A DNA stretch of 55,613 bases from a virus (Duplodnaviria > Heunggongvirae > Uroviricota > Caudoviricetes), in IMG/VR virus record IMGVR_UViG_2744054912_000007, one strand, 5' to 3'. Position numbers and translations under genes: made by a program. Below, piece after piece: positions 23,218-43,019 of this stretch (its first letter is position 1; every line of letters begins with the position of its first letter). The notes under the pieces are model-generated. The model worked only from the letters and a program-made list of their open reading frames with translations. It was not told where the DNA came from and searched no databases.

Positions 23218-24528
23218 TTAAATCCGAAGTGATGTGACTCTTCCGGTCGGTTTGACAATAGGGAATTGCTTAACGATGAAATAACCTCCGGCATCATTCG
23301 GGTGATCATTGCCAGATTTTTTATCAGGCTCCCCCTTCTCATCCCAGACCTGTTGCTCCAGAGATTCGGCATATAACGGGCAACGCTTCACATTAACTTT
23401 ATAGCGACGCTCACCATTGGCATTGCAGAACATTGCATTCATTGAGTTAACGCGATCTTTTACTGGCGGGTTCGAGCTGTTCACCACAACGTTAAAACCA
23501 GCCTGCTTAAGCTGGGCTATATCCGTCGTACTTGCGTTACTTGATTTTCTGGAATCCCCGGAAGCATCTGGATAAATATAAATTTCCCTCACTTTCCGGT
23601 AATCATTCCCATCATACAGCCAGAAGCGTTCTTTAATGATGCGGATCATATCCGGCGTATCGTAGGCATTGATGATTTCAGTTACCGCACATGGAAGCCC
23701 CAAACGCAGCACATGGACGATTCCCGCCATCTTTCCAACGTTAAAATCCATCCCAATATAAATCGGCTCCCCTGGCTGCTCCACTTCTTCGCAATTATTC
23801 AGTTTCCGGTCAAACTGATGGTAAACAGTACCACTTGTCAGGTTAGTAAACTGTCCTCGAAGATAGGCTTTAATCAGCTCTGGAGGGTATGATTCAAGAA
23901 GCGAAGGAATGTAATCTGCTGGCAGGTTCTTTTCATTATCGAAAGTAGATGCCTGCACCAGACCATACAGTGAGGCCAGCTCTGTTTTTTCACGCACGGC
24001 TTTAACAAACTGCTCGTAGACAAATTTGAATCCTTCCGGCGTGGTTGTAACGTCAATACCGTTGCGAAGTCCATCAATCTTATAACGCATACGTGCAATT
24101 ATCTTGCGCCACGCCGTTCTGGCTTTTTCCTTCGGCAAAATGTCCAGTTCATCCACCAACGCATTACCAATTTTGAAACCGACGATCGTTTGTGGCTTCT
24201 CCATCGATCTGCAGATAGTGGTTCCCCGATACTGGCGTCCGTAATAAAAGTGAACCTCTTTATTTCCCTCATTAATTTTTACGTTCAATCCCCAGTCAGC
24301 AGCAACTTCTTCCACTGTAGGGTAAAAAATATCGCGAATTTGGGGATACGTTGGCGCAAAATATCCCTGATTTATACCTGGATGCTCCCAAATCCCCTTG
24401 CATATGCCGCCACACCCAACCCATGTTTTGCCCGAGCCAAAACCAGCAATATAGGCTTTAAATTTATGGGGCATTGAAAGAAATCGCGCCTGAGGCACAT
24501 TAAGCGTCGGAGAGATCATCTTCATCAC
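23218..24528 (-). CDS. Terminase large subunit (ATPase/nuclease)
   Basis: Walker A-like AGFGSGKT near the N-terminus and acidic nuclease-type motifs C-terminally; overlaps the upstream small subunit gene. Confidence 0.85.
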   Translation of the reverse strand: MMKMISPTLNVPQARFLSMPHKFKAYIAGFGSGKTWVGCGGICKGIWEHPGINQGYFAPTYPQIRDIFYPTVEEVAADWGLNVKINEGNKEVHFYYGRQYRGTTICRSMEKPQTIVGFKIGNALVDELDILPKEKARTAWRKIIARMRYKIDGLRNGIDVTTTPEGFKFVYEQFVKAVREKTELASLYGLVQASTFDNEKNLPADYIPSLLESYPPELIKAYLRGQFTNLTSGTVYHQFDRKLNNCEEVEQPGEPIYIGMDFNVGKMAGIVHVLRLGLPCAVTEIINAYDTPDMIRIIKERFWLYDGNDYRKVREIYIYPDASGDSRKSSNASTTDIAQLKQAGFNVVVNSSNPPVKDRVNSMNAMFCNANGERRYKVNVKRCPLYAESLEQQVWDEKGEPDKKSGNDHPNDAGGYFIVKQFPIVKPTGRVTSLRI

Positions 24529-25594
24529 TCCTTACTCTGGCATCAACCACATTAATATTGATCGCCACAGGCTGGGGATGTTCATTATCTTCCACCGTTT
24601 CGATCTCTTTGCGCAGCTTCTGGTTTTCCATTCTGCGCCGTTCAATTTCCAGTTCCTGTAGCCGTTTATCTGCACATAAAGCCCCGCCAGCAGAAAACAA
24701 ACGCAACAATTCACGCCGGGCGGCAGCCTTATCCTCCAGCAGGATCTCAACGCCGAATTTTCCGAATTTTGCCCCTGCATATAATTGCCGCGCATCCCCA
24801 TCAAGCAGAGTGGTATCAGCCATATAAAGCTGTCCCGTTCCCTCACCGCAGCACTTCGGGCAGTCCGGATTGGGTATGGCGTTATCAACAAAGCCGAGGC
24901 CTCCATATTCCGGTTCGGGTTTGCCATCTCTGGAAGCCTGCGCCGCTGCCTTGTCGAATTCTGCTATATCGCGCCACTGGTAGAGATGATTCTCGCCCCA
25001 GCAATAACGGCAGTTAACACGGCGAAATTGTGCAAGCTGATTGGGGTCGGCCAGGACAATAGCCATCAACTGACTCACTAGTAAATCCAGGTCTGCGGTA
25101 TAGCGTTTCTGGTACTGATTGCGGAAGTAGCTGATAGCGCGAAAAACCCTGGCATTTCTAAGCATACGACTGGCGTTGCTGTTAGCTGTCGCACCTTGCC
25201 CCTCATAACCGGCTAGTCGGTACGCCTCTGTCGGCTTTTTACCCTGAGCAACAAGCATCGCAAACTTAGCCTGCTGGTCAGAAATGCCGAATTCATCGGG
25301 ACAGAACGAAAATTCCTCCGCGTCGCCCTCATTCAGGCCCGCATCGAATACTGGCTTTTTTTCCTGAGATTTTTCGTTCCGCTTTTGTGCAGTCTGCGCA
25401 GATTTTTTCTGCGCACTTTTTTGCGCAGTTTTGCACATTTCTGTCTGCGCATTTTTCGGAGTTTTTTTGATGTAACGACGGGCTGTTGCGTAATTCAGTC
25501 CCCTTGCTTCACACCATGCCACCGGAGATATACCGGAGCGGGTGTATTCAGCAATATACTCCTGCTGCAACGCCCCCCAGTCCGGTCTGCTCAT
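24500..25594 (-). CDS. Terminase small subunit (364 aa) with N-terminal HTH
   Basis: N-terminal HTH (ATARRYIKK), central basic region and C-terminal coiled coil, directly upstream of the large subunit. Confidence 0.65.
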   Translation of the reverse strand: MSRPDWGALQQEYIAEYTRSGISPVAWCEARGLNYATARRYIKKTPKNAQTEMCKTAQKSAQKKSAQTAQKRNEKSQEKKPVFDAGLNEGDAEEFSFCPDEFGISDQQAKFAMLVAQGKKPTEAYRLAGYEGQGATANSNASRMLRNARVFRAISYFRNQYQKRYTADLDLLVSQLMAIVLADPNQLAQFRRVNCRYCWGENHLYQWRDIAEFDKAAAQASRDGKPEPEYGGLGFVDNAIPNPDCPKCCGEGTGQLYMADTTLLDGDARQLYAGAKFGKFGVEILLEDKAAARRELLRLFSAGGALCADKRLQELEIERRRMENQKLRKEIETVEDNEHPQPVAININVVDARVRSDEDDLSDA

Positions 25595-25597
25595 CAG

Positions 25598-25849
25598 TTA
25601 GTCCTGATTTTTATCCACCCTGAGTAGTTCGCGCAGAGCAAAGGCATCCCCTTTTCTGGCAAGCTTAAACAATGCCGCTCGTAACTCGGCTTCACCTTTC
25701 GCTCTGCCCTTACGGATGGCCGCATAAAAATCTGTCATTGCTTCCCGATTTTCTTTCAGTCGGTTCAGATCAACATCCAGAACGTCAGCGATTTGTTGTG
25801 CAGTCATCCGGCACGCTGCCAGAGACTCGACTTTCGAATACGGAATCAT
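25598..25849 (-). CDS. Small HTH DNA-binding protein (possible packaging accessory)
   Basis: HTH-like segment TAQQIADVLDVDLNRL. The 5' end overlaps the upstream gene, so the true start is probably the internal Met at about 25807. Confidence 0.35.
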   Translation of the reverse strand: MIPYSKVESLAACRMTAQQIADVLDVDLNRLKENREAMTDFYAAIRKGRAKGEAELRAALFKLARKGDAFALRELLRVDKNQD

Positions 25850-26738
25850 TTGTCACCCCCATTGATATGCAGGGTGTCTTCTTCCTGTATTTTTCGTGAA
25901 GGATTTTTACTGCAGCGTTGTTCCAGGTGACCTGATGGTGAATGCGTTTATGGCTGGCACCCATCAGTGAGATTTTTACGCACGACGGCGCATACATGAC
26001 GGAGTAAAAACTTTTAACGTAGGTTCCGGAATCCAGATACAGCTCGGTCATTCCGCCGCTGTTTTTCTGCGTCTGTTTCTGCCCTAACTGGACAGCACCG
26101 ATCGTCATAAACAATTCACCACAGCGACCGAGATTCGTGTACGTATTCACATCCTCGTTAATGCGCCCCATGAATGAGAACGGTCGATCAACCGAACAGA
26201 TAAAGCTGTTCATTGCCTTGCGTTTCACCCACGAAGCATGGCCGCCATTGTCACCAAGAAAATCCCCGCCCTGCGACATAGCGATGGAAAGAGCAGGTAT
26301 TGATTCGTAGTACGCCAGCATTTCAGAAAGGATCGCATCCAGTTTCCTTATCGGAAAATAGGCCTGGTCATAGTTGCGATCCACCCGAAACTGGAACTCG
26401 TGATAATCATCATCGAGCTGAATGAAGTATTTACACCCGACCAGTTTTGCCAGGTCGAAACAGGCATTACGGGCGTAAAAAATTGAGCGGCGGTCACAGA
26501 AATTATCGGCTTCGTCAAAACGACTGGCGATATCGGCTTTGGAAAACACCAGCACCTGTTCACCAAATTCATCCATGTACTGATTTCGTGTCTTATCTTC
26601 ATCATCAACAACGATAAAAATTTTCCCGGTATAGCCAGCACGACGCAACGTCCGGTAAGTCAGAACTTTGTCCGGTCGCCCGTGAGTCAGAATAAAGGCG
26701 CAAAAATCATCACGCATATTCCTCCTCCTCACCACCAT
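25785..26738 (-). CDS. Hypothetical protein with GT-A-like (nucleotide-sugar transferase-like) DxD motifs
   Basis: N-terminal beta-alpha-beta pattern FILTHGRPD...KIFIVVDDED and a later FIQLDDDY acidic motif. No SAM-binding or DPPY methyltransferase motifs were seen. Confidence 0.4.
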   Translation of the reverse strand: MVVRRRNMRDDFCAFILTHGRPDKVLTYRTLRRAGYTGKIFIVVDDEDKTRNQYMDEFGEQVLVFSKADIASRFDEADNFCDRRSIFYARNACFDLAKLVGCKYFIQLDDDYHEFQFRVDRNYDQAYFPIRKLDAILSEMLAYYESIPALSIAMSQGGDFLGDNGGHASWVKRKAMNSFICSVDRPFSFMGRINEDVNTYTNLGRCGELFMTIGAVQLGQKQTQKNSGGMTELYLDSGTYVKSFYSVMYAPSCVKISLMGASHKRIHHQVTWNNAAVKILHEKYRKKTPCISMGVTNDSVFESRVSGSVPDDCTTNR

Positions 26739-27501
26739 GCATGATCTCCACCATGCGCTGCGTCATCCGGACAAATCCATTTTCAATAGCCTGCTGATAA
26801 TCAATGATCACCAGCGCCGACTCCTCGAAAAAACACTGAATTTCAGAGGGGGCGTGAGCGTAATAGTCCGCAATTCTGCTGAAATTAAACACCGTGTGAC
26901 GTTCTGCCGCACACAGGAGGAATTTCTCAATATCAGGCTCAAGGGACGCCGAACGTATCCGGCTGATCAGCTCCTGAGTTTTCGTATCGTCGTACAGTTC
27001 ACTGATATCCGGTTTACCGCCCGACGGCTCATAAACAGGCGTATCAATTTTCGTCGTATACGGCTCCTCCTCATTTCCTGTACCGGGCAAAACATCCGTC
27101 AACAGTTCATCAATTTCTGTCGGGATGAAGCCTGTCAGGGAGACATCAAAATCAGCATTGATTAGGTCCGACAGCTCCATCCGCAACAGATCTTCATCCC
27201 AGCCAGCATTCATCGGCAGGCGATTATCTGCCAGGCGGTACGCCTTTTTCTGCTCATCCGTCAGGCCAGACAGAACAATGACCGGAACAGAATCCATTTT
27301 GAGCATTTCAGCCGCCATAACACGACCGTGACCCGCAATAATTTCGCCCTTTTCGTCAATCAGCACCGGATTAGTCCAGCCGAATTGCTTAATACTTTCT
27401 ACCAGTTGTGCCACCTGCTCAGGGCTGTGCGTCCTGGCGTTGTGCGCATACGGTGACAATTCTTGTAATGGGCGATAGACTATCTTTAATTTCTCGCTCA
27501 T
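26710..27501 (-). CDS. ParB-like nuclease domain (ParB/Srx fold) protein
   Basis: Conserved ParB N-terminal motif region (TNPVLIDEKGEIIAGHGRVMAA) followed by an acidic C-terminus; located upstream of the terminase genes. Confidence 0.75.
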   Translation of the reverse strand: MSEKLKIVYRPLQELSPYAHNARTHSPEQVAQLVESIKQFGWTNPVLIDEKGEIIAGHGRVMAAEMLKMDSVPVIVLSGLTDEQKKAYRLADNRLPMNAGWDEDLLRMELSDLINADFDVSLTGFIPTEIDELLTDVLPGTGNEEEPYTTKIDTPVYEPSGGKPDISELYDDTKTQELISRIRSASLEPDIEKFLLCAAERHTVFNFSRIADYYAHAPSEIQCFFEESALVIIDYQQAIENGFVRMTQRMVEIMHGGEEEEYA

Positions 27502-27638
27502 ACAGCCTTGCTTTATGAATAAAACGCACCCCAGCAGCCAGTGCTACTGGGGACGGAGGGGTTGCTGGTAAAGTTAGGTATTGGATCAATGAGTGAGTCA
27601 ACATAATATTAAACTCACAATTATAAATCAGCCATATA

Positions 27639-29096
27639 TTAGGAGCGCCAAAAAAAACCTGAAAACAATATAATAACAGGATAAATTTCAAGGCGACCAA
27701 GAATCATAGCTATGCACATTAAACATTTTGCAATGTCATTAAGCACTCCGAATGACGATGCAGTAGCCCCAAAACCTAATCCCATATTATTAATACATGC
27801 AGCCACTGTTGCAAATGATGTAAGAAAATCATATCCCATACCATTTAACACCAGTATAAAAAACACCGTGAAGAGAGTATAAAGAAAAAAGAAACTCCAT
27901 ACAGACCTCATTACACGATCTGTAACTATCTTCCCTCCTACATTTACACTCAACAACGCTCTGGGATGAGAAAGCTGATTTATCTCGTGTTTGCTTTGTT
28001 TGAAAAGTATAAGAAATCGAAGTGACTTAATTCCACCACAAGTTGAACCTATACATCCCCCAAAGAAACTTGACAACAGCAAAAACACTATCGTGTGCGT
28101 GGGCCAACTTGCATAATCCTGCGTAGCTAAACCATTATCAGTGAGCATGGAGCTGGCAAGAAAAAACGAATGAATAAAACTTCCATGCAAGTCATACATA
28201 CCTATATGCCAGACCTGGAAAGAGGTAACAATGATCACCCCTAAGGCTATTAACAGAAAGAAACGAAGTTCAATATCTCTGATTAAAGGTTTTATCGTTT
28301 TCCTGCTAATAACAATATACCAAAGAGTGAAGTTGAAAGCCGATAGCAGGGAAAAAGAACCAGCCACCAGCTCAACTAAATAGTTATTAAAATATCCGAT
28401 ACTCTCGCTATGAGTTGAGAAACCACCAAGCGAAACTGTGGAAATCCCGTGACAAATAGCATCAAACAAAGGCATTCCTGCAAGTCTATAACAGACAATA
28501 CAAGCAATACCTAATAAAGAATAAGTTATCCACAGTGTCCGTGACGTATCGGCCAGGCGGGGAGTGAGTTTGTCATCCTTAAATGGCCCCGGCATTTCTG
28601 ACTGATAAAGCTTTGCACCACCAATACCCAATAATGGCAATACAGCAACCGCCAGAACAATAACTCCTAAACCACCTATAAAATTTAACTGTGACCGATA
28701 GTACAAATATGCCCGAGGTAATGAACTAACATCATCAATTACAGTTGCTCCTGTTGTTGTTATTCCAGAAACCCCTTCAAACAGAGCATCAATGAACGTT
28801 AAATTAAGTTCTGAGTCAATCCATAAAGGGAATGCACTAATAACAGAAAACAAAATCCAAAACATTACAATTATAATAAACCCATCACGGGTACGTAATT
28901 GAATGCCAGATTTCTTAGTTGTATACCACGCTCCGCCACCAATGCAAAAAAATATAACGAAAGTTATAAAGAAAACGAACAGGCTTTTTTCTTTATAAAA
29001 CAATGCTACAACCATTGGTGGCAACATTGAAAGACTATAGAGCCAAACCAGGAACCCACACATATGAGTAACAACTCTTACATGAGATGTATTCAT
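27639..29096 (-). CDS. trkG: Trk-system potassium uptake protein TrkG (TrkH family)
   Basis: Polytopic membrane protein with repeated pore-loop-like segments (GxTTTGATV, GxGG). The likely start MNTSHVRVV gives 485 aa, the K-12 TrkG length; the track ORF extends to 29114. The gene and its flanks are visibly AT-rich. Confidence 0.85.
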   Translation of the reverse strand: MNTSHVRVVTHMCGFLVWLYSLSMLPPMVVALFYKEKSLFVFFITFVIFFCIGGGAWYTTKKSGIQLRTRDGFIIIVMFWILFSVISAFPLWIDSELNLTFIDALFEGVSGITTTGATVIDDVSSLPRAYLYYRSQLNFIGGLGVIVLAVAVLPLLGIGGAKLYQSEMPGPFKDDKLTPRLADTSRTLWITYSLLGIACIVCYRLAGMPLFDAICHGISTVSLGGFSTHSESIGYFNNYLVELVAGSFSLLSAFNFTLWYIVISRKTIKPLIRDIELRFFLLIALGVIIVTSFQVWHIGMYDLHGSFIHSFFLASSMLTDNGLATQDYASWPTHTIVFLLLSSFFGGCIGSTCGGIKSLRFLILFKQSKHEINQLSHPRALLSVNVGGKIVTDRVMRSVWSFFFLYTLFTVFFILVLNGMGYDFLTSFATVAACINNMGLGFGATASSFGVLNDIAKCLMCIAMILGRLEIYPVIILFSGFFWRS

Positions 29097-29233
29097 ATCT
29101 AAATATTCTTTCAATTATAACCACCTTGCTGCAATATTATGATTATACTGTATAAAATTTAACTCCTCTTAGATCTTACTTCACTGTTCCTTATGAAACA
29201 ATCATCAAAATAAATCATATTGTAGTTAAGATT

Positions 29234-30658: not shown

Positions 30659-31054
30659 CTAACCTCGCATGTCAAAGCCAGATTTCTGAAAATCTCTGTA
30701 GACTTCCGGATTGTTGAAGGCCGGAAATTTGGCTTTATGAGCTGCGGACTTTATCGCTTCGCAATAGGCTTTATCACCGTTACTGGTAGATATTTTTAAC
30801 GCCGTGCCATCCTGAGAGAATTCCATATGCAACCTGCATTTTTTCCCTTTCCAGTTATGCGGCTCATCAAGTTTGGCATTAATTGCAGCTCTGATTCCCC
30901 GCGCTTGCGCCCCCCATTCATCCTGATCATCCCAGCGTCCTGAACTGCAACTACCTGTAGCAGTAGTTTTGTGGCAATCTGAAGGGTGTAAAGGTGTGCA
31001 TCCCGCAACAAAACCGACCCAAAAAGTCAACATAACGATTTTCTTTAATCCCAC
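30659..31054 (-). CDS. Lipoprotein with divergent TolA domain III-like C-terminal domain (moron)
   Basis: Lipobox (FVAGC) and a C-terminal GKKCRL...GD...YCEAI...AKFPAF...PEVYRDFQ pattern paralogous to the adjacent gene. Confidence 0.6.
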   Translation of the reverse strand: MGLKKIVMLTFWVGFVAGCTPLHPSDCHKTTATGSCSSGRWDDQDEWGAQARGIRAAINAKLDEPHNWKGKKCRLHMEFSQDGTALKISTSNGDKAYCEAIKSAAHKAKFPAFNNPEVYRDFQKSGFDMRG

Positions 31055-31204: not shown

Positions 31205-31633
31205 TCAGGGTTTAAAATCCAGCACCCCATTTTGAAATACTTTATATACTTCCGGCGAAGGGGGGGCAGGTATATCAGCATTCTTTATCGCATTCATCGC
31301 TTCACGACATAAATCGAGGTCTCCACTTTCTCTTTTAACCTCCAGTAGAAGGCCATTCGGGGCCATATGCATTCTCAGTGTACACTCTTTTCCTGAATAC
31401 TTACTCGCATCCCCGAACTGTTTTTCGATGGCGCTCTTGATTTGATGGGCATACAGACGGATATCCTCACTAACATCAGAAGTACGTTCAGATGAACTCA
31501 CATACTGTGTCTCTATTGCTTTATCGGAGTAATATGATGTACGGTCATGATAATTTGTCGATACAGCATCAGTGCACCCGATAATAATCCCACTAATAAT
31601 CAACGTAAGAATTGATGCGCTACGAAAACCCAT
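31205..31633 (-). CDS. Lipoprotein with TolA domain III-like C-terminal domain (moron)
   Basis: Lipobox (IIGC). The C-terminal 85 residues (YAHQIKSAIEKQFGDASKYSGKECTLRMHMAPNGLLLEV...LCREAMNAIKNADIPAPPSPEVYKVFQNGVLDFKP) align almost position by position with the TolA C-terminal domain as I recall it. Confidence 0.65.
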   Translation of the reverse strand: MGFRSASILTLIISGIIIGCTDAVSTNYHDRTSYYSDKAIETQYVSSSERTSDVSEDIRLYAHQIKSAIEKQFGDASKYSGKECTLRMHMAPNGLLLEVKRESGDLDLCREAMNAIKNADIPAPPSPEVYKVFQNGVLDFKP

Positions 31634-34730: not shown

Positions 34731-34801
34731 AGCCTGCTTCTCCTGTCAACGCAAAGCAGAAGTGTCACCTTCGGTGCGAAACAGAGATGTCATGCTTTGG
34801 T

Positions 34802-35089
34802 TCAGAGAATGCGTTTGACCGCCTCGCTATATACTTCCGAGCGTTCTCTTTTCCCAACAGAAATCACGAAAACGACAACTTTCTCGTCTATAACCTGGTA
34901 TACAAGGCGATAGCCTGAAGACCGGAGCTTAATCTTGTAACAATCAGGCATACCACGGAGCTTGTTTGCTTCAATCCGGGGTGACTCAAGTACTTCAACC
35001 AGCTTCTTTTTCAACTGTTCACGTACCGTCGAGCCCAGCTTTCGCCATTCCTTTAGTGCCCGCTCGTCAAAATCCAGAAAATACGCCAT
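34802..35089 (-). CDS. relE: Type II toxin RelE (mRNA interferase), 95 aa
   Basis: Sequence MAYFLDFDERALKEWRKL...YRLVYQVIDEKVVVFVISVGKRERSEVY is the RelE signature; start/stop overlap with relB. Confidence 0.9.
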   Translation of the reverse strand: MAYFLDFDERALKEWRKLGSTVREQLKKKLVEVLESPRIEANKLRGMPDCYKIKLRSSGYRLVYQVIDEKVVVFVISVGKRERSEVYSEAVKRIL

Positions 35090-35328
35090 CAGAGTTCATC
35101 CAGCGTCACACGTACTGGCTTAGGATTACGAAGCCGTTCTTTCACTATCTCCACAAGTTCAGCATCTTCATCACTCAGGAGTGTCTGTTTGAACGGCAAG
35201 CGTTCATTGTCAGCGATATACTCGAGCATGAGACGAAGCGCTTCAGAAGGAGTTACACCCATTTTTTCAAGCGCGGCGTAAGAACGCGCTTTAAGTTCAT
35301 CGTCAATACGCAGGTTAATGCTACCCAT
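35089..35328 (-). CDS. relB: Type II antitoxin RelB (79 aa)
   Basis: RHH-type N-terminus (MGSINLRIDDELKARSYAALEKMGVTPSEALR); directly upstream of and overlapping relE. Confidence 0.9.
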   Translation of the reverse strand: MGSINLRIDDELKARSYAALEKMGVTPSEALRLMLEYIADNERLPFKQTLLSDEDAELVEIVKERLRNPKPVRVTLDEL

Positions 35329-35339
35329 GTCTTACACCT

Positions 35340-35365
35340 CTTGTAATTACAAATGTCATTACAAG
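35340..35365 (-). promoter_or_regulatory. relO operator (RelB/RelE binding inverted repeats) at the relB promoter
   Basis: Minus-strand CTTGTAATGACATTTGTAATTACAAG, adjacent TTGTAAT/ATTACAA inverted repeats starting 12 nt upstream of the relB start codon. Confidence 0.7.
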
Positions 35366-35810
35366 TATCGCACTACAACATGCTTAGGGCAAGTCACGAA
35401 GGAAGTCAGAAAGTAGTCGTAAGAACGGTGATCACTGTCCGCTTTGTGCCAGGAGCAGCCATTGCTAAGTCCATCCTGTATTGTGCAGGTCAGCTCATTT
35501 TTAAAGAGTCCGGCCATCATCTTACTGGTACAGACACCATATACTTTGTGACGGTCAGGCTACATATGCACAACTCAACTTATTCATCTATTTTTTGCTT
35601 TAGCATGTCAGTGTTGCTTTCTCGTCGGCGGGTGAGCGGTGACCTGACCTGTCGATAAAGGAACGTAGCACGTTTTATGCAACACCCGCATGCGGCAGAA
35701 AATTATTGCCGAACGTTTACCCCTGTCAACAAGCTTTACTTTCTGAGGCGCGCCAGCCCGCTAGGAAAACAATCTGAACATCAAACAATTAATGACACAA
35801 GAAATACGAT

Positions 35811-35837
35811 TAAAGATTTTTTTGTGCATGCCGATAG
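35811..35837 (+). promoter_or_regulatory. Sigma-28 (FliA) class 3 flagellar promoter of flxA
   Basis: TAAAGATT, an 11-nt spacer, then GCCGATAG matches the sigma-28 consensus TAAAGTTT-N11-GCCGATAA; followed by an AAGGAG SD and the flxA ATG at 35861. Confidence 0.75.
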
Positions 35838-35860
35838 TGCTTTTTTAAAAGGAGAAATCT

Positions 35861-36193
35861 ATGTCTGTCACAATTCAGGGAAATACCTCAACCGTTATTT
35901 CAAACAACTCCGCCCCGGAAGGAACATCAGAAATAGCCAAAATCACAAGACAAATTCAGGTGCTGACTGAAAAGCTTGGGAAAATCTCATCGGAAGAGGG
36001 GATGACGACACAGCAGAAAAAAGAAATGGCTGCATTGGTACAGAAGCAAATTGAAAGCCTCAGGGCTCAACTGGAGCAGTTGTTAAGGCAGCAGGCAGAG
36101 AAAAAGAATGAAGACGCGACAGTTCAGCCTGATAAAAAAGAAGAGAAAAAAGACGATACAAATACCGCTGGCACCATTGATATTTACGTCTAA
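35861..36193 (+). CDS. flxA: FlxA (FliA-regulated prophage protein), 110 aa
   Basis: Sequence MSVTIQGNTSTVISNNSAPEG... with a coiled-coil centre matches recalled FlxA; preceded by a sigma-28 promoter. Confidence 0.85.
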   Translation: MSVTIQGNTSTVISNNSAPEGTSEIAKITRQIQVLTEKLGKISSEEGMTTQQKKEMAALVQKQIESLRAQLEQLLRQQAEKKNEDATVQPDKKEEKKDDTNTAGTIDIYV

Positions 36194-36207
36194 GTGACAG
36201 CCGTATT

Positions 36208-36230
36208 GTGGCCCTCATCGGGCCACTTTT
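36208..36230 (+). terminator. Intrinsic terminator of flxA
   Basis: GTGGCCC-tcatc-GGGCCAC hairpin followed by TTTT, 15 nt after the flxA stop. Confidence 0.7.
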
Positions 36231-36599
36231 CGCCATCAGCCTTTTCTTTAAAGACATATTATCTTTGTATCATTTCTGATAGTTAACATTACAAGATATA
36301 AGTAATGGACGCACTCCCAATTAGTCTATTTAAATCGCCACGAGTTTAACTGACAACCCATGATCAATTATGAATTGCAACTATTTCTGTAGTCACTTTT
36401 GTGGGGACAGTCCACAAAACTGCCAACTTCCGCTTCTTGCTCTTAGCGGACATTAGCATAGGCTATTTACCATAACGCCTCATTACGCGCACCGCCCAGA
36501 CTGACTCAGCGCGTTTCTGGCATATCCCCAGTAAAACAAGTAACAAACCACCCGAAAATGAACACCAGAAACGCGACTTAAGAATCTACCCTATGAATG

Positions 36600-38010
36600 G
36601 ATATGCACTCAACCGAATCGATCTTGGTTTCAATCTTTTTTATCGGGATCAGGCTTCTTTTTAGGTAACTTCGGGGGCTTAACTTGCTGATGACTTTGCG
36701 TTCGGCGCGTAAGCCAGGGATGGTCAGCTTTAGGTTTAACATAGTATTTTGAGCGTAAATCAATACGGGCATTATCCACTCGTTCATGGACACTCTTTTC
36801 ATCATCCAGTGGTATAGGCTCCGGGCCATCAACATACTTTTCCCAGCCCAGCGCTTTCCCGTCATACAGAACGTTAATTTCACCGTCAAAGTTCTCGCAT
36901 ACAGTAACAACCGAATGCCTAAGTCGATATCCCCGGCTCTCACTGCGTACCTGAAACGCACTGCTTTTGTACTGGAAAGTGAGATTTTTAGACAGAACGC
37001 GCTTCGCCTGTAGGCTGAAGATATAACCCAGTTCCTCTTCAGAATGGTGCACATCAAGATGAGCATTATCAGTAGTACGAGGCGACGTAGCGAACCGGTT
37101 GTTATAGGCTTCAATAAAGGTCGGCAACCATGCATTTGCTGTTTCAATATCACTGATATTCTGAAGCCGCATTTCTTTGACCAGCCTGTCCTGTAGTGTC
37201 TGATTGGCGCGCTCTACCCGCCCTTTTGCCTGCGGGCTGTTGGCATGGATTGGCTCGATGCCCAGTGTCTTTATCGCACGAGTGAACTGGGTCAGCTCAC
37301 CTTCCCGCTCTGGGTTATTTACCCTGAATATACTGTGTCTATCAGAGTAGAGAGCGAGCGGTACGCCATGATCATTAAGGTAACCCCGGAGGGTTTCCAT
37401 GTAAGCCCGGGTTGTTTCAGCAGGCACAAAACGCAACGCCATCAACGCACTGGTGGCATCATCAATGAAAACGATCAGTGTACATCTGGGGCCTCGATTT
37501 TCAAACCAGTCATGAGGTGAGCCATCAATCTGGATCAGTTCACCGTAAGATGGTCGTCGCATGCGGCGTTGATATATACGGGCAATTTTACGACGGCGTT
37601 CACGCCATAACCCCTCTTCTATCATCCACTTTCTGAGAGTTTCAACGGATAAAGATAAACCGTGTATCTCGCGCAATTTTTCGCACGCAAACGTAGGTCC
37701 AAAATCAGCGTAACGGCCTTTGAGGAGTGAAATTACTGTTGCTCTGAATTCAGTAGAAAAGGAATTATTAGGACGCTTTCCACGTCGGTGGGAAACCAGA
37801 CCAGAAGGCCCTTCATTTCTATACCGTTGCACCAGACGTTTAACCTGCCGAATAGAAATGCCAATGCGTGCCGCAGCTTGTTCCTGAGTAATATGTCGAT
37901 TAATTGACTCCTGAATAATCTGAAGTCGGTGGAGTTCCTTATGACTCATCGTAACAGTCTCTTTGATCATGAAAAATCCCCCAGAGAATTGTCTGGGGAC
38001 ATTTTAGAAT
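36600..38010 (-). mobile_element. Insertion sequence (boundaries approximate)
   Basis: Single transposase ORF with a terminator-like hairpin (CCCCAGA-gaattg-TCTGGGG) just upstream of its start. Terminal inverted repeats could not be identified by eye, so the ends are uncertain. Confidence 0.35.
36630..37970 (-). CDS. DDE (rve-type) transposase with N-terminal HTH, ISNCY/IS481-like (446 aa)
   Basis: HTH (QEQAAARIGISIRQVKRL) and a DDE triad context (LIQIDGS ... YSDRHSIF ... KGRVERANQTL). Confidence 0.8.
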   Translation of the reverse strand: MIKETVTMSHKELHRLQIIQESINRHITQEQAAARIGISIRQVKRLVQRYRNEGPSGLVSHRRGKRPNNSFSTEFRATVISLLKGRYADFGPTFACEKLREIHGLSLSVETLRKWMIEEGLWRERRRKIARIYQRRMRRPSYGELIQIDGSPHDWFENRGPRCTLIVFIDDATSALMALRFVPAETTRAYMETLRGYLNDHGVPLALYSDRHSIFRVNNPEREGELTQFTRAIKTLGIEPIHANSPQAKGRVERANQTLQDRLVKEMRLQNISDIETANAWLPTFIEAYNNRFATSPRTTDNAHLDVHHSEEELGYIFSLQAKRVLSKNLTFQYKSSAFQVRSESRGYRLRHSVVTVCENFDGEINVLYDGKALGWEKYVDGPEPIPLDDEKSVHERVDNARIDLRSKYYVKPKADHPWLTRRTQSHQQVKPPKLPKKKPDPDKKD

Positions 38011-38766
38011 GGTTCAAAGGGGACATTACAGCTTGGTGTTAACAATAGCCTGCTTCTCCTTGCCTTCCGGCGCGTAAGAGGCTAACCTACATGTGCAAAG
38101 CATGAAATTGGCCTCAGATTAATGTTAAGCGTCTTGCCGGACGCGTAATGTTATCTGGGGCTTTTCTCTATCTGCCTTTGGTGTTCATGCCTGAGGCAGA
38201 TAGCCTCAAGCACCCGCAGCAATTCTACTTAACTCCCGTCACCTCGCCAATATAAAATCAATCAGAAAGGCGATCCATAAGAACAACAGCAAGACAATAA
38301 ATTGCCATTACAGCCGCAATAGCTAGCGCACATTTGAGAACCAGCACGACAACCTCCTGTATTGGACGTACACCAGTTCTGATAAATATGAGGCTGTCTC
38401 ATCATTGATTCAATATAACTATTGGGTATAGTTTCTGTGATTTTGTTCTGTAGAAATGGAACACAACAACCAGTCACCACCAGCACTTCTTTAAATACGC
38501 CAAGTCCGACGCAAGCTAACCTTCTAGTCCGCTTTGAGCGAGGAGCGGACCAAACCCGGCCAACTGACTCTTAAAGGGGCCGCAGGAATTTTTCGTCTGA
38601 ACTTTCGAAGCTCCTCTCCCTGAAGACAGAAAACTTCTGTGTGCTGTGGGAATATTGAATCTTTGCCTTAGATATAAATAATTTTATCCCGCCTGAAGTT
38701 TACATTATTTTATTTATCTGTTTTTCTAAATCAGACTGCACTCCTTACTTAAATCAGGAGCCAGTC

Positions 38767-39966
38767 ATGCCATTTGTTATTTATGTGTTTACTATCAGTG
38801 CCTTTGCGCTCGGACTCGCGGAATTTGTCCCCATTGGGCTGACAGACGTTATGGCTCAGGGGTTGTGTGTGGGTGTGGAGCAGACCGGGGCAGCGGTTAC
38901 AACCTATGCACTGGGGGCAACGTTCGCGGCACCCGTACTGTCTGCGCTGACAGCAAGCTGGAGCCGGAAAAATGTAATGCTTACAACTGCCGTTGTGTTT
39001 ACTGCCGGTAGTCTGGCGGCCGCGTTTGCAGCCACATTACCTCAGCTCCTGTTAGCGCGGTTCATTGCTGGTCTGGGACACGGCCTGTTTCTGGCTGCGG
39101 CATCCAGTACCGCAGCTCGTCTTGCTGGACCGGGTAAAGCAGGCAGAGCGGTGGCTGTGGTATTTGGTGGCTTTACTCTGGCGATGGCAATCGGCGTACC
39201 GCTGAGTACATGGTTGGGGGGGGTGGTCTCATGGCGTCCAGTTCTCGGCGCTATTGCCGCTTTTGGCGCGTTCGGATTCCTTGGACTGTTGTTCGGTATG
39301 AAAGATCCCGTACGCAGCGTGCCCGGTGAACATAGTGACTCAGCAATGCAGAATATCGGCATGCTGTTTAACCGTAAGTTGCTGGCCGGCGCGCTGGTTA
39401 CGGTGCTGGCGTATGCAGGCTCGTTTACGGATTACACCTTTATCGCACCTATTCTGACGCAGGTGACAGGGGTTACCGGAGCAACGGTGAGTCTGTTTAT
39501 GCTGGTTTACGGTATTACAGCTGCGGTAGGTAATATTCTTGGTGGGAAACTTACCGACAGCATGGGGGTTAATCGTGCCAATATACTCATCATTAGCGGC
39601 ATTGTTGTTGTCGTGCTTGGTATGTGGCTGCTGTCATCCTCACCGGTGAGCATGGGCATTCTGGTTGCGCTGCTGGGTATGGTGACATTTGCCGCAGTGC
39701 CGGCACTGCAGGCCCGTCTGATTGGTGTCGCTGAGCAACATGCTCCTCATGCGCATGGTGTTGCTGCCGGCCTGAATATTGCGGGCTTCAACTCAGGTAT
39801 AGCGCTGGGATCAGTACTGGGCAGCATTACTATAAGCCACGCCGGTATCGTGTATACCGGTATCAGCGGTGCGATTGTTTCTCTGCTCGGCCTGCTGTTG
39901 CTGCTTGCACAAATCCGTCGCAGCCACAGTCGTAAATTTCAACAGGTTAAAATCGTAGGCCAGTAA
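38767..39966 (+). CDS. MFS transporter (12-TM, 399 aa)
   Basis: Multiple hydrophobic helices and Gly-rich MFS-type motifs; first gene of the co-directional MFS-ChaC-LysR block. Confidence 0.8.
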   Translation: MPFVIYVFTISAFALGLAEFVPIGLTDVMAQGLCVGVEQTGAAVTTYALGATFAAPVLSALTASWSRKNVMLTTAVVFTAGSLAAAFAATLPQLLLARFIAGLGHGLFLAAASSTAARLAGPGKAGRAVAVVFGGFTLAMAIGVPLSTWLGGVVSWRPVLGAIAAFGAFGFLGLLFGMKDPVRSVPGEHSDSAMQNIGMLFNRKLLAGALVTVLAYAGSFTDYTFIAPILTQVTGVTGATVSLFMLVYGITAAVGNILGGKLTDSMGVNRANILIISGIVVVVLGMWLLSSSPVSMGILVALLGMVTFAAVPALQARLIGVAEQHAPHAHGVAAGLNIAGFNSGIALGSVLGSITISHAGIVYTGISGAIVSLLGLLLLLAQIRRSHSRKFQQVKIVGQ

Positions 39967-39977
39967 AGGGAGGTTAT

Positions 39978-40670
39978 ATGCTTACCCGTGAAAATATGCT
40001 TAATGGCACATTTGTCAGGGTGCATGAAGCGCTGCTCCCGGCGAATATGCTCTGGGACGCTGAAAAAATACGCGCATCAATGAACTCTACTCTGGAGGAG
40101 CGCCCGACGGGTGCTCCTGTCTGGATATTTGCCTACGGGTCATTGATGTGGAATCCCGTGCTGGCGATTGAAGAAATGCAACGGGCCCGTCTGAAAGGAT
40201 GGCAGCGCAGTTTCTGCATTCGTTTGATATCCGGACGAGCGACTCCTGATGTCCCCGGCAGGATGTTATCGCTCGACGAAGGTGGAATTACCGAAGGTAT
40301 TGCGTTCAGACTGCCGGAATCGACTCTTATTAATGAGCTGGAAATTGTCTGGACGCGCGAGATGATAACCGGTCTTTACCGTCCGGTCTGGGCAGACGTT
40401 TCGCTAGGAAACGGTGAGGAAATTCAGGCGCTGGCTTTCGTATCAGACAGACTGCATCCGCATTATGAACAGGACAATCTTACAGCGACCGTAGCGTTGA
40501 GCATCGCATCTGCCCGTGGAGACATTGGCACGAATGCAGATTATGTATGGAAACTGCAGGCCACTCTGGGTGCGTTGGGAATACGGGATGATTACGTGAG
40601 TGAACTGGCCCTTGCTCTGCATGAGGCTCCCTGTAACGATAAACTTCATCAGCGAGGTGCTTCACTATGA
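39978..40670 (+). CDS. ChaC-like gamma-glutamylcyclotransferase (230 aa)
   Basis: VWIFAYGSLMWNP motif and overall resemblance to E. coli ChaC as recalled. Confidence 0.75.
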   Translation: MLTRENMLNGTFVRVHEALLPANMLWDAEKIRASMNSTLEERPTGAPVWIFAYGSLMWNPVLAIEEMQRARLKGWQRSFCIRLISGRATPDVPGRMLSLDEGGITEGIAFRLPESTLINELEIVWTREMITGLYRPVWADVSLGNGEEIQALAFVSDRLHPHYEQDNLTATVALSIASARGDIGTNADYVWKLQATLGALGIRDDYVSELALALHEAPCNDKLHQRGASL

Positions 40671-41548
40671 GCCATCTGAGCCATCTGCGAACGTTTCTTG
40701 AGGCCTATCGCTCTGGCTCCTTTTCAAAGGCGGCAGAACTACTGGGCATCACTCAGCCCGCGGCGTCACAGCATATCCAGTCTCTTGAGACTCTGGTTGG
40801 TAAGCGTCTGTTTATCAGGCAGGCCAGAGGCGTGACGGCAACCGAAGCTGCGGATGAGCTTGCCCGCTCAGTTTCACCCTTCATTGATGGTCTGGAAGAA
40901 AAGCTGTCCTCTTTCCGGTCAGGCTCTGTACGCGGGGGAACAATTAATCTGGCAGGACCGCCAGATTTTATTCATTCCCGGCTTGGGACAGTAATGGCTC
41001 CACTAATGAAGGAGGGGTATCGCCTACGCTTTCATACCGGCAATAAGCAACGTATTTATTCCCTTTTGCATGACGGGAGCGCCGATCTCGCTGTTACCGC
41101 ATCTATGCCTGATGACCGTCTGTACGGCTATGCACATCTACTGACTGAACGCATGCTCCTTGTTCATGCTCCCGCCATGTCAGAGATCATCGGATCAGAA
41201 CCTGGTGCTGAAACGCTTGCCTCATTACCGCTGATTGCTTATGACGAAGAGTTGCCACTGATTAGAGCGCTCTGGGCCTCCATGTTTCAGAGAGCCCCTG
41301 AGATGCAGGCTACATTCACCATTCCGGATTTACGTATTATCCGCGACTTGGTCTGTGACGGCCACGGGTGGACAGTGCTGCCGGATTATCACTGTGACAA
41401 TGACCTGAAAAGTGGTCGCCTGATTTCAGTGACACCTGCAGACCTCGCTCCGACTAATCATCTTTATCTGGTCTGGAACAAAAGGACGGCTAATAACAGC
41501 CGAACCGCCTATGTTCGGGATTACATTCTTAAAACGTTTCCGCGTTGA
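40667..41548 (+). CDS. LysR-family transcriptional regulator (293 aa)
   Basis: N-terminal HTH (LRTFLEAYRSGSFSKAAELLGITQPAASQHIQSLE) and a C-terminal substrate-binding domain; overlaps the ChaC stop by 4 nt. Confidence 0.85.
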   Translation: MSHLSHLRTFLEAYRSGSFSKAAELLGITQPAASQHIQSLETLVGKRLFIRQARGVTATEAADELARSVSPFIDGLEEKLSSFRSGSVRGGTINLAGPPDFIHSRLGTVMAPLMKEGYRLRFHTGNKQRIYSLLHDGSADLAVTASMPDDRLYGYAHLLTERMLLVHAPAMSEIIGSEPGAETLASLPLIAYDEELPLIRALWASMFQRAPEMQATFTIPDLRIIRDLVCDGHGWTVLPDYHCDNDLKSGRLISVTPADLAPTNHLYLVWNKRTANNSRTAYVRDYILKTFPR

Positions 41549-41678
41549 TGTTTGAAACGGATGATTGGCGATGCGTATCATAAGTTACGTATGTCCGCTT
41601 CTGGCACAAAGCAGACGCCCACTCTCACGCGAATGCTTTGCCCTTGACTTGCCAACAACCGTATCGCTTGCTCCGCAA

Positions 41679-42971
41679 CTATGGTTTTTTATTAGAATCT
41701 TCGCCACTAAATAAATTATAATAAATTGATTTTATTAGATATCTGTCAGAATCTATATGGTCAGCACGAGTAGCATGCTCTAATGTTTCAAATGCTAGGG
41801 TTTGTGCGGCTTCAGCAAAAATTCCAGGCCAACCCTTACTCAGCATCGACAGTCCTTTAAGTACCCTTATCTGAATTTCCCTCATACTGGCACCATCGCG
41901 CGCAACAGGTGAGAAAAAGTCTTCAAGTAGATCGTTATTCTGAAGTGGTGCAACATGTACAGAAGGATATTTCACTTCTATTTCATCAGATTTATTCTGC
42001 GCGTAAGCGGAAAGTATACGTACACCTCTGCCAATGACATCAATGGCGGTTCCAGGATCGTTCACTGCGGGGGAAAGGGCTCGGCAGGCTATTTCGGCCA
42101 TGACGCTAAGACAAAATCGGGGGTCCTGAGCAAATGAACGTACATCCGAGACAATAATCGTCTCAAGTAAATCGGTGCTGATTGATGACTCCTGGCCCTG
42201 ACTCAGGTACAAAACTGGCGTGGACGGATGTATGAAACTGCCCGGCTGCGCCACGAGGTATACATGACGGGGATCATTGGTCAGCAGCTTGCTGAGTTTC
42301 ACCATATCAACATATTCAACATAGCCAATCTTTTTCGGATAAACTGCAACCGTTCCTTTCGGCTGTTCATTGTTCTCAAGCCATGGATATCCGCCGAGAC
42401 AGGGATTTCTTGCTCTCGCAATAAATGTTTCGATGGCCGCCTGTTCTACTTTTGCCGTTGTCTCACCAACCCTCCCCAGAGAGGTCAAATGCTGTATCCA
42501 GCGAAGCAATGTGATGAGGATTAAGGCAATGACAACCAGTGTTACAATGAATAAAATGACTCTCCCCCTTTCTCCATAAGCTCCCATATTGAGGGCAATA
42601 ATCCCTACCAGACTGAAGAGAAAAGAACCGATGAAGGTGGCCAGTACATTTTGTGTGGTGACGTCTTCAACAACTAAACGAGTAGCTCTGGGAGTCACAT
42701 TAGTAGTGGCTGAACCGTAGGCTGTGACCATGATGCTCAGCGAAAATGTGGTCACTGCCAGCATACTCGATGCCAGTATGTTCAGAATGTTATCGACTGC
42801 TTCCGCACCAACCTTCACGGAAACCGACTCAGGTATCATTGATTTAAAAAGAATTGATAAAAGGGCCGTTATTATTGCGACAATTGCGAATAACGTTGCC
42901 CTGAACCATAGTTTTTTAAATGTCTGCTTCAGCATCCATTTCCAGCGTGAAATCATTCTGCATTCCCTCAT
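41679..42971 (-). CDS. DUF2254-like membrane protein (430 aa)
   Basis: N-terminal multi-TM region and a soluble C-terminal domain; downstream of, and apparently co-transcribed with, the BCCT gene. Confidence 0.55.
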   Translation of the reverse strand: MRECRMISRWKWMLKQTFKKLWFRATLFAIVAIITALLSILFKSMIPESVSVKVGAEAVDNILNILASSMLAVTTFSLSIMVTAYGSATTNVTPRATRLVVEDVTTQNVLATFIGSFLFSLVGIIALNMGAYGERGRVILFIVTLVVIALILITLLRWIQHLTSLGRVGETTAKVEQAAIETFIARARNPCLGGYPWLENNEQPKGTVAVYPKKIGYVEYVDMVKLSKLLTNDPRHVYLVAQPGSFIHPSTPVLYLSQGQESSISTDLLETIIVSDVRSFAQDPRFCLSVMAEIACRALSPAVNDPGTAIDVIGRGVRILSAYAQNKSDEIEVKYPSVHVAPLQNNDLLEDFFSPVARDGASMREIQIRVLKGLSMLSKGWPGIFAEAAQTLAFETLEHATRADHIDSDRYLIKSIYYNLFSGEDSNKKP

Positions 42972-43019
42972 ATTGCAGCCGGGATAAATAAATGCCGCCT
43001 CTGTGGCGGCATGTTGCTG

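Follow-up and report, generated by a model that had tools for sequence, protein, structure and literature searches.

The stretch of DNA analysed here at its full length, hereafter the window (55,613 nucleotides; IMG/VR virus record IMGVR_UViG_2744054912_000007), is a full-length, intact Rac prophage of Escherichia coli, and on its minus strand, between trkG and the lysis genes on one side and terS/terL on the other, it carries a two-gene module (25785-27501) that encodes a ParB-like protein and a glycosyltransferase. The glycosyltransferase is a member of the TAGT (TET-associated glycosyltransferase) family with a GT-A fold and an intact set of active-site motifs; it is coupled to the ParB-like gene, both genes are under purifying selection (dN/dS 0.07-0.12), the two obligately co-occur across diverse viruses, and the prophage has no annotated hydroxymethyl-pyrimidine pathway. 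We favour, at about even confidence, the reading that the pair is a late-expressed, self-sufficient two-gene DNA glycosylation module, by analogy with ParB-assisted DNA modification systems; we infer the DNA target, the late timing and the role of the ParB-like protein as an activator. Neither the two protein families nor ParB-assisted DNA modification as a concept is new; the apparent novelty lies in the obligate and reciprocal association of this TAGT clade with its partner domain, in its independence from hydroxymethylation, and in its presence in Rac.

The glycosyltransferase and its ParB-like partner

The preliminary description of this DNA had proposed a ParB-like nuclease gene overlapping a gene for a GT-A, DxD-type glycosyltransferase. 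Both minus-strand open reading frames (ORFs) exist as described, at 26710-27501 (263 aa) and, at full extent, at 25785-26738 (317 aa). The start of the glycosyltransferase is almost certainly the ATG at 26717 (M8 of the 317-aa ORF), because a Shine-Dalgarno sequence, GAGGAGGAGG, is present at 26721-26730 and homologues begin MRDDF at this point, giving a protein of 310 aa (25785-26717). This protein matches the Pfam TAGT family (PF20691) over residues 15-229 with 122.1 bits against a cut-off of 27.5 (E 3.7e-35), as well as phrog_842 (E 1e-103), and its RefSeq name in E. coli is "GREB1-related". The TAGT family was reportedly defined by Iyer et al. in 2013. The AlphaFold2 (AF2) model (pLDDT 75, pTM 0.74) has a GT-A fold, and of its 45 Foldseek matches in the PDB at E <= 1e-3, all but a few structurally related ADP-glucose pyrophosphorylases are GT-A transferases (AvpGT, GalNAc-T2, K4CP, SpsA); a PDB sequence search with the glycosyltransferase profile detected no solved relative. 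Profile search and structure prediction thus bear out the proposed enzyme class by placing the transferase in TAGT and not in an unrelated family, and its membership of that family is clear. The R...DDD...ED set, part of the R...DDD...ED(Y/F) active-site motifs described for phage GT-A DNA glycosyltransferases (bioRxiv 10.1101/2023.12.21.572611), is intact in the Rac enzyme as R14 (26676-26678), D102-D104 (26406-26414) and E188-D189 (26151-26156), the residue after ED being V, not Y/F; R14, D102-D103-D104 and N187-E188-D189 are invariant or nearly so in alignments down to 40% identity. The protein ends in a tail of about 25 residues (residues ~285-310; 25785-25870) that is missing in homologues, is modelled with pLDDT <50, overlaps the small ORF downstream, and probably arose as a side effect of a recombination joint at this place.

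The ParB-like protein, which is conserved at full length in homologues, matches Pfam ParB_N (PF02195; 28.9 bits, cut-off 26.3, E 1.2e-6) and phrog_620 (E 8.5e-91). Its N-terminal domain (aa 1-135; 27097-27501) is modelled by AF2 with a pLDDT of about 75-93, is matched by Foldseek to Noc (7nfu), ParB-CDP (6sdk), PadC and KorB at E 3e-6 to 1e-5, and carries a GxxR phosphate-binding motif in which G57, G59 and R60 are invariant and H58 nearly so. The modelled fold is that of the ParB-CTPase/Srx nucleoside triphosphate (NTP)-binding domains, and NTP binding is predicted. The earlier label of "nuclease" derives from an old Pfam name and is not supported, and no nuclease domain was detected in the protein by Pfam or NCBIfam scans. 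The closest match of the N-terminal domain is the corresponding domain of the phage ParB-methyltransferase family phrog_498 (E 1.2e-50); neither protein of the Rac pair has a methyltransferase domain in the Pfam scan, in agreement with the preliminary description.

The remainder of the ParB-like protein (approximately aa 143-263; 26713-27075), delimited by alignment with stand-alone proteins of 130-150 aa, is a TAGT-specific partner domain that consists of a linker motif followed by a helical domain. The linker motif, Y148-T-x-K-x-x-x-P-x-Y157-x-P159 (27025-27060), is made up of invariant alignment columns and lies in a stretch (aa 137-169) that AF2 models with low confidence and that is probably disordered, and aa 170-255 are helical. 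This C-terminal domain of ~110 aa has no Pfam family, producing only recurrent sub-threshold matches to Phage_Gene47, and the stand-alone proteins, which form a very large family, are likewise without a Pfam domain. Neither protein of the pair has a membrane segment by hydropathy (19-residue maximum 1.1-1.25).

The two genes meet at a junction (26710-26730) where the Shine-Dalgarno sequence is followed by ATGCGTGA; the junction reads GAGGAGGAGGAAT-ATG-CGT-GA, and the glycosyltransferase start overlaps the ParB-like stop by 8 nt. The overlap reported in the preliminary description is therefore present, but when counted from the true start it measures 8 nt and not 29. The overlap and the strong Shine-Dalgarno sequence together indicate that the two genes are translationally coupled. 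A terminator-like hairpin identified by pattern scan (27529-27552, minus strand) is located between trkG and the ParB-like gene, and its position ahead of the pair suggests that the pair would be read by an antiterminated late transcript.

Co-occurrence and genomic contexts across viruses

We surveyed the pair from both sides. On the glycosyltransferase side, among 80 diverse IMG/VR loci with 47-60% identity to a distant representative, a match to the ParB-like profile directly adjoins the TAGT gene in 77, and the other three are cut by contig ends (77/77 assessable); the partner is nearly always immediately upstream and on the same strand. Domain mapping showed 55 of these partners to be full-length and ~15 to be stand-alone proteins that correspond to the C-terminal part only. 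On the partner side, 77 loci were fetched via the C-terminal domain (one not assessable), and a TAGT gene is found within 300 nt in 72 of them and within 2.4 kb in four (76/76 assessable). The two surveys together cover ~155 diverse viral loci with reciprocal adjacency of TAGT and C-terminal domain, and the pairing is far beyond chance. The earlier view of a module with a ParB-fold gene before the terminase is upheld, and the module is conserved. From the domain mapping and the reciprocal adjacency, the conserved unit is the transferase plus the C-terminal domain, with the ParB fold as an optional N-terminal addition; that the conserved partner is this domain of the "ParB" protein, and not the ParB fold, was overlooked in the preliminary description. 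In one locus (L150), the ParB-like and TAGT parts are naturally fused in frame into a single protein of 522 aa.

The hosts of the viruses with the pair include Gram-negative and Gram-positive bacteria as well as archaea (E. coli, Lactobacillus, Nocardia, Vibrio and Haloarcula). With full-length partners, it directly precedes terS/terL in Rac, in Lactobacillus phage c5 (as ORF1 and ORF2, the first genes after cos), in phi jlb1 and in HK97-like contigs, and in the archaeal virus HHTV-2 it is ~3 kb upstream of terL; the terminases beside it are of at least four unrelated types. Partners that consist of the C-terminal domain only are encoded in lytic phages, inside a DnaB-primase-PolA-clamp block. 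A beta-clamp homologue adjoins the pair in 11 of the 17 loci with C-domain-only partners vs none of the 59 with full-length partners, a contrast that is suggestive only, because those 11 loci probably represent one phage lineage. ParB-N6/N4-methyltransferase genes are found immediately upstream of the pair in L119 and L125, and sugar-tailoring enzymes recur as neighbours or fusion partners, among them extra TAGTs, NAD epimerase/dehydratases, radical S-adenosylmethionine (SAM) enzymes, SAM methyltransferases, a sulfotransferase and a P-loop kinase. N6/N4 DNA methyltransferases recur as well, and some of these carry a ParB domain of their own.

Immediately downstream of the transferase, a radical SAM/SPASM-twitch-like enzyme is encoded in nine of the 80 loci (L146:10866-11831 and relatives) and an NAD-dependent sugar epimerase/dehydratase in seven (L108:3012-4031 and relatives), in each case with full-length partners; such neighbours suggest unusual sugars. 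Natural fusions within the TAGT clade (P0270, P0307, P0318, L094:9455-10846; P0248, P0249, P0282, P0266, P0268) join the transferase to an N-terminal P-loop kinase, SAM methyltransferases, a sulfotransferase or a second TAGT, and point to phosphorylated, methylated, sulfated or oligomeric glycans. Long proteins that had been suspected to be ParB-glycosyltransferase fusions proved instead to be fusions of this kind (TAGT-TAGT, methyltransferase, sulfotransferase and P-loop kinase), and short "ParB" matches taken for N-domain-only proteins were rejected as such, since domain mapping shows them to consist of the C-terminal domain only. A PolA-encoding phage contig also encodes, 5 kb from its TAGT and partner genes, a dGTP diphosphohydrolase N-domain protein (PF18909; L174:15623-16159); enzymes of this type are linked to base-replacement pathways. 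In some close relatives of c5, the Lactobacillus phages LL-Ku, Ld17 and Ld25A (H54-H59, H110), the transferase gene survives only in split or truncated form or as a 45-residue remnant beside the ParB-like gene, which indicates that the module is dispensable in the laboratory and has been repeatedly lost.

In RefSeq/GenBank annotation, neither the Rac prophage nor the complete small phages that carry the pair (c5 and phi jlb1) have a TET/JBP dioxygenase, a thymidylate-synthase-like hydroxymethylase or a DNA methyltransferase. None of these appears in the Pfam lists of L002-L007, L172 and L174 (TET_JBP and Thymidylat_synt being missing from L172 and L174), and for 290 proteins encoded no more than 6 kb from the transferase across the 80 loci, TET_JBP and Thymidylat_synt are not among the families listed; the TET/JBP negatives rest on RefSeq/GenBank annotation and on Pfam scans that list the commonest families. 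The "TET-associated" context that defines the TAGT family is thus not found here. With no hydroxymethylation route, the prophage has no means of making the usual acceptors (5-hydroxymethylcytosine (5hmC), 5-hydroxymethyluracil (5hmU) or a sugar on either); the preliminary description had overlooked that the family normally needs a hydroxymethyl-pyrimidine, which a Rac phage cannot supply. "Solitary" TAGT homologues of this kind were left unexplained in 288 of the 753 glycosyltransferase-encoding phage genomes of a 2026 survey (PMC13216743), and ~65% of glycosyltransferase contigs were set aside by Pyle et al. for the same reason. The Rac gene is one of these solitary TAGTs, being without alpha-GT or beta-GT; the survey did not report the obligate C-domain partner, the terminase and replisome contexts, or the lack of a hydroxymethylation route (PMC13216743).

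Related systems and candidate functions

The Rac enzyme shares its Pfam family, GT-A fold and R...DDD...ED set with the phage TET/5mYOX-associated GT-A DNA glycosyltransferases (Burke 2021; Pyle 2024), and both groups are phage-encoded, often together with further glycosyltransferases and sugar-tailoring enzymes (bioRxiv 10.1101/2023.12.21.572611). However, the TET/5mYOX-associated enzymes sit by a C5-methyltransferase and a TET-type dioxygenase that together make the 5hmC acceptor, whereas Rac and the small complete phages have no such gene; conversely, in the Rac TAGT clade a dedicated partner domain is always present. The T2/T6 beta-glucosyl-HMC-alpha-glucosyltransferase, whose name PHROG 842 bears, belongs to the same Pfam family and acts on DNA (PMC13216743, PMC13390438), but Rac cannot make the 5hmC that bears its acceptor, an already attached glucose, and a ParB-like partner is missing from it. 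The relationship is also very remote: homologues from T4-like Aeromonas phages show only 22-26% identity (E ~1e-4).

Parallels for the pair as a whole are found among ParB-fold accessories of DNA-modifying enzymes. In the 5mYOX176/ParB176 system, the ParB homologue likewise has an NTP-binding domain, a linker and a C-terminal domain, has no helix-turn-helix (HTH) domain, stands beside a DNA-modifying enzyme, and is needed for the thymine dioxygenase activity of 5mYOX176 on double-stranded DNA (PMC13229309). The likeness is one of architecture, 5mYOX176 being a dioxygenase whereas the Rac enzyme is a glycosyltransferase, and the Rac-type C-terminal domain also occurs stand-alone. A ParB-fold NTPase similarly serves as an accessory or N-terminal module of a base-modifying enzyme in DpdA/DpdB 7-deazaguanine modification, in which the DpdB ATPase serves DpdA (PMC10164549), and in ParB-methyltransferase fusions (PMC12704722), although the catalytic partners and chemistry of both are unlike those of the Rac pair; ParBc is also a frequent neighbour of CmoX (PMC12783734). 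The Rac pair fits this pattern in that a ParB fold without an HTH domain is coupled to an enzyme of DNA-modification type, as seen in the 8-nt overlap, the adjacency and the fusion.

In the mechanism that we propose, the glycosyltransferase (gene 2) would be a soluble GT-A enzyme that uses a nucleoside diphosphate-sugar and Mn2+/Mg2+ via its DDD and ED motifs, and the ParB-like protein (gene 1) would be its dedicated partner, the C-terminal domain of ~110 aa and the YTxK..PxYxP linker binding or activating the transferase while the N-terminal ParB-CTPase-fold domain adds an NTP-gated switch. The ParB-like protein would thereby play the role of the ParB homologues that serve phage thymine dioxygenases, or of DpdB for DpdA. 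Most probably the pair would act on newly replicated phage DNA just before packaging, leaving a sugar mark on progeny DNA that blunts host nucleases. Phage DNA that carries sugars withstands restriction enzymes and CRISPR nucleases and sets off type IV and glycosylase defences. Lytic phages might use their own clamp where temperate phages fuse a ParB NTP switch to the partner, an idea made plausible by the report that the T4 alpha-GT works in association with the replisome (PMC13216743). The nucleotide-sugar-dependent modification suggested in the preliminary description accordingly survives as the best reading, with DNA as its presumptive target. DNA is the most likely target because DNA and the partner protein are the only candidate substrates that the viruses infecting E. 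coli, Lactobacillus, Nocardia, Vibrio and Haloarcula share, because the gene contexts are those of replication and packaging, because the N-terminal domain is one used by phage DNA methyltransferases, and because a helper role of ParB-fold proteins is established for other enzymes that modify DNA (5mYOX176/ParB176 and DpdA/DpdB).

Several points weigh against a DNA glycosylation module. To our knowledge, all characterised TAGT-type enzymes glycosylate a hydroxyl (of 5hmC, 5hmU or a sugar), and the bases of canonical DNA offer no hydroxyl acceptor; an enzyme that would make one is lacking in the prophage and in several small complete phages. We likewise know of no DNA glycosylation route that starts from anything other than a hydroxylated pyrimidine. 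With a pI of 4.5 (N-terminal domain 4.7, C-terminal domain 4.4), the ParB-like protein is strongly acidic, and the domain scan revealed no HTH domain in it, which counts against its binding DNA itself; its C-terminal domain is modelled with low confidence; and the invariant Tyr/Thr linker motif could instead be a protein acceptor site. No DNA modification has been reported for Rac-like phages, and the clade has no characterised member. We tentatively entertain, as possible rather than probable, a specific form of the DNA reading in which the pair would glycosylate canonical DNA (at a base nitrogen or oxygen, or at the backbone) without a hydroxymethyl precursor; the C-terminal domain would give the GT-A enzyme access to DNA, either tethered to a ParB-type NTP switch (temperate phages) or used alongside the phage clamp (lytic phages).

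Some of the same observations would be accommodated by protein glycosylation, with the partner as a glycogenin-like acceptor on the Tyr/Thr of YTxK..PxYxP, or with another phage or host protein O-glycosylated in the manner of GREB1 and ER-alpha. GREB1, which shares the Pfam domain of the Rac TAGT, is a protein O-GlcNAc transferase that acts on ER-alpha (PMC7968844), a precedent that also tells against DNA as the target, although GREB1 is a large eukaryotic protein and has no ParB-like partner. The invariant hydroxyl residues Y148, T149 and Y157 in a disordered linker, the acidity of the partner and its lack of a DNA-binding domain, and the presence of glycogenin among the weaker fold matches of the transferase are consistent with such a role, as is a locus with five TAGTs and one partner (L102), where several paralogues would share a single acceptor. 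Yet two other loci (L109 and L116) have one partner per transferase in the order partner-TAGT-partner-TAGT, which fits subunit pairs better than a shared acceptor; moreover, the contexts are those of DNA replication and packaging, not structural-protein clusters, and, the partner aside, no conserved protein is common to the viruses of E. coli, Lactobacillus and Haloarcula. On balance we rate protein glycosylation as unlikely.

Three further explanations, even taken together, are distinctly unlikely. Many unrelated phages encode the pair just ahead of terS/terL, and in c5 it follows cos directly, a placement that could indicate a packaging accessory; the ParB-like protein would then tag or arrange phage DNA close to cos/pac for use by the terminase, with a non-catalytic or minor role for the glycosyltransferase-like protein. 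This is very unlikely given that the catalytic residues (R, DDD and ED) do not vary over 40% sequence divergence, that lytic phages have the pair beside PolA and the clamp and well away from the terminase, and that terminases of at least four unrelated types accompany it. Lysogenic conversion of the cell surface (O-antigen or teichoic acid glycosylation of the Gtr/TarP style), which the preliminary description had offered as an alternative, has a precedent in TarP and similar GT-A enzymes of prophages, TarP being structurally close to the GT-A enzymes of phages (bioRxiv 10.1101/2023.12.21.572611), but we regard it as highly improbable and no longer retain it: both proteins are soluble, there is no GtrA/GtrB-type partner among the prophage neighbours, a late-operon position behind a terminator-like hairpin is wrong for a gene expressed in the lysogen, and the hosts, an archaeon included, have unrelated envelopes. 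A classical ParB function, whether partition of a plasmid-like prophage or a ParB-like nuclease, is implied by the database labels "chromosome (plasmid) partitioning protein" and "ParB-like nuclease" and is scarcely credible for a prophage that is integrated next to ttcA and has an integrase: no ParA is annotated anywhere in it, the ParB-like protein has no HTH domain, its match to the canonical partition-ParB model TIGR00180 is confined to the N-terminal domain and reaches only 38.5 bits against a cut-off of 58.45, and its fold matches are to CTP-binding domains. A two-gene DNA glycosylation module is therefore the reading that we retain.

The Rac prophage and the ynaK remnant

The window is identified as Rac by intR beside ttcA, xisR, recET, kilR, sieB, lysis genes and trkG. 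The small ORF and the terminase genes described next are on the minus strand. Between the glycosyltransferase and terS, and overlapping the 3' end of the former, is a small ORF (25598-25849; 83 aa, or 69 aa in the NCBI call, from 25807) that resembles part of a terminase small subunit (PHROG 309; phrog_309 E 8e-23) and is labelled a hypothetical protein in RefSeq; there is no NCBIfam model for this ORF or for the glycosyltransferase. The terminase genes themselves, terS (24500-25594) and terL (23218-24528), which together match Pfam Terminase_2, Terminase_6N and Terminase_6C, follow, with a portal gene next downstream. On the other side of the pair, trkG (27639-29114), a potassium transporter gene of ~38% GC, forms low-GC cargo between the lysis cassette and the ParB-like gene. 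Upstream of the holin, two ORFs (30659-31054 and 31205-31633) encode small proteins with lipoprotein-type signal peptides, named TolA C-terminal-domain proteins in RefSeq, that may have a superinfection or colicin-exclusion function. The region ~34800-45023 contains relBE, hokD and flxA (Qin-like) together with a cargo block, inserted between the late-regulation and replication regions, that comprises an insertion sequence remnant, an MFS transporter (38767-39966), a gamma-glutamylcyclotransferase, a LysR regulator, a DUF2254 protein and a BCCT transporter (43020-45023).

Among 5426 complete E. coli genomes, 889 (about one in six) contain at least 80% of the sequence of the pair. In K-12 derivatives only 27248-27501 is left, as ynaK, which abuts ydaY and corresponds to the first ~85 codons of the ParB-like gene. 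The intact ParB-like ORF is often annotated by RefSeq/PGAP for its first 86 codons only (27244-27501), as "ynaK, incomplete, missing C-terminus" or as a pseudogene, and 26710-27243 is left without annotation in genomes whose sequence is identical to the window; the short annotation looks like an artefact of naming after the truncated K-12 protein. The K-12 YnaK stump covers only part of the ParB NTP-binding domain. In a 2026 overexpression screen, this stump of 87 aa raised the minimum inhibitory concentrations of six antibiotics 3- to 6-fold (PMC12924614).

The locus places a solitary-type TAGT in the best genetic system available for it, the Rac prophage of E. coli, with K-12 ynaK as its remnant, and reveals that such a TAGT is never alone but has a dedicated, unannotated partner domain that is usually fused to a ParB NTP-binding fold. 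If DNA is the target, the pair would glycosylate it independently of a precursor and would put the ParB switch to a further use, and if that target is canonical DNA, this would amount to a previously unknown type of DNA modification, found in about one-sixth of E. coli genomes and in bacterial and archaeal viruses. If the target is instead the partner protein, the pair would constitute a new phage glycoprotein system.

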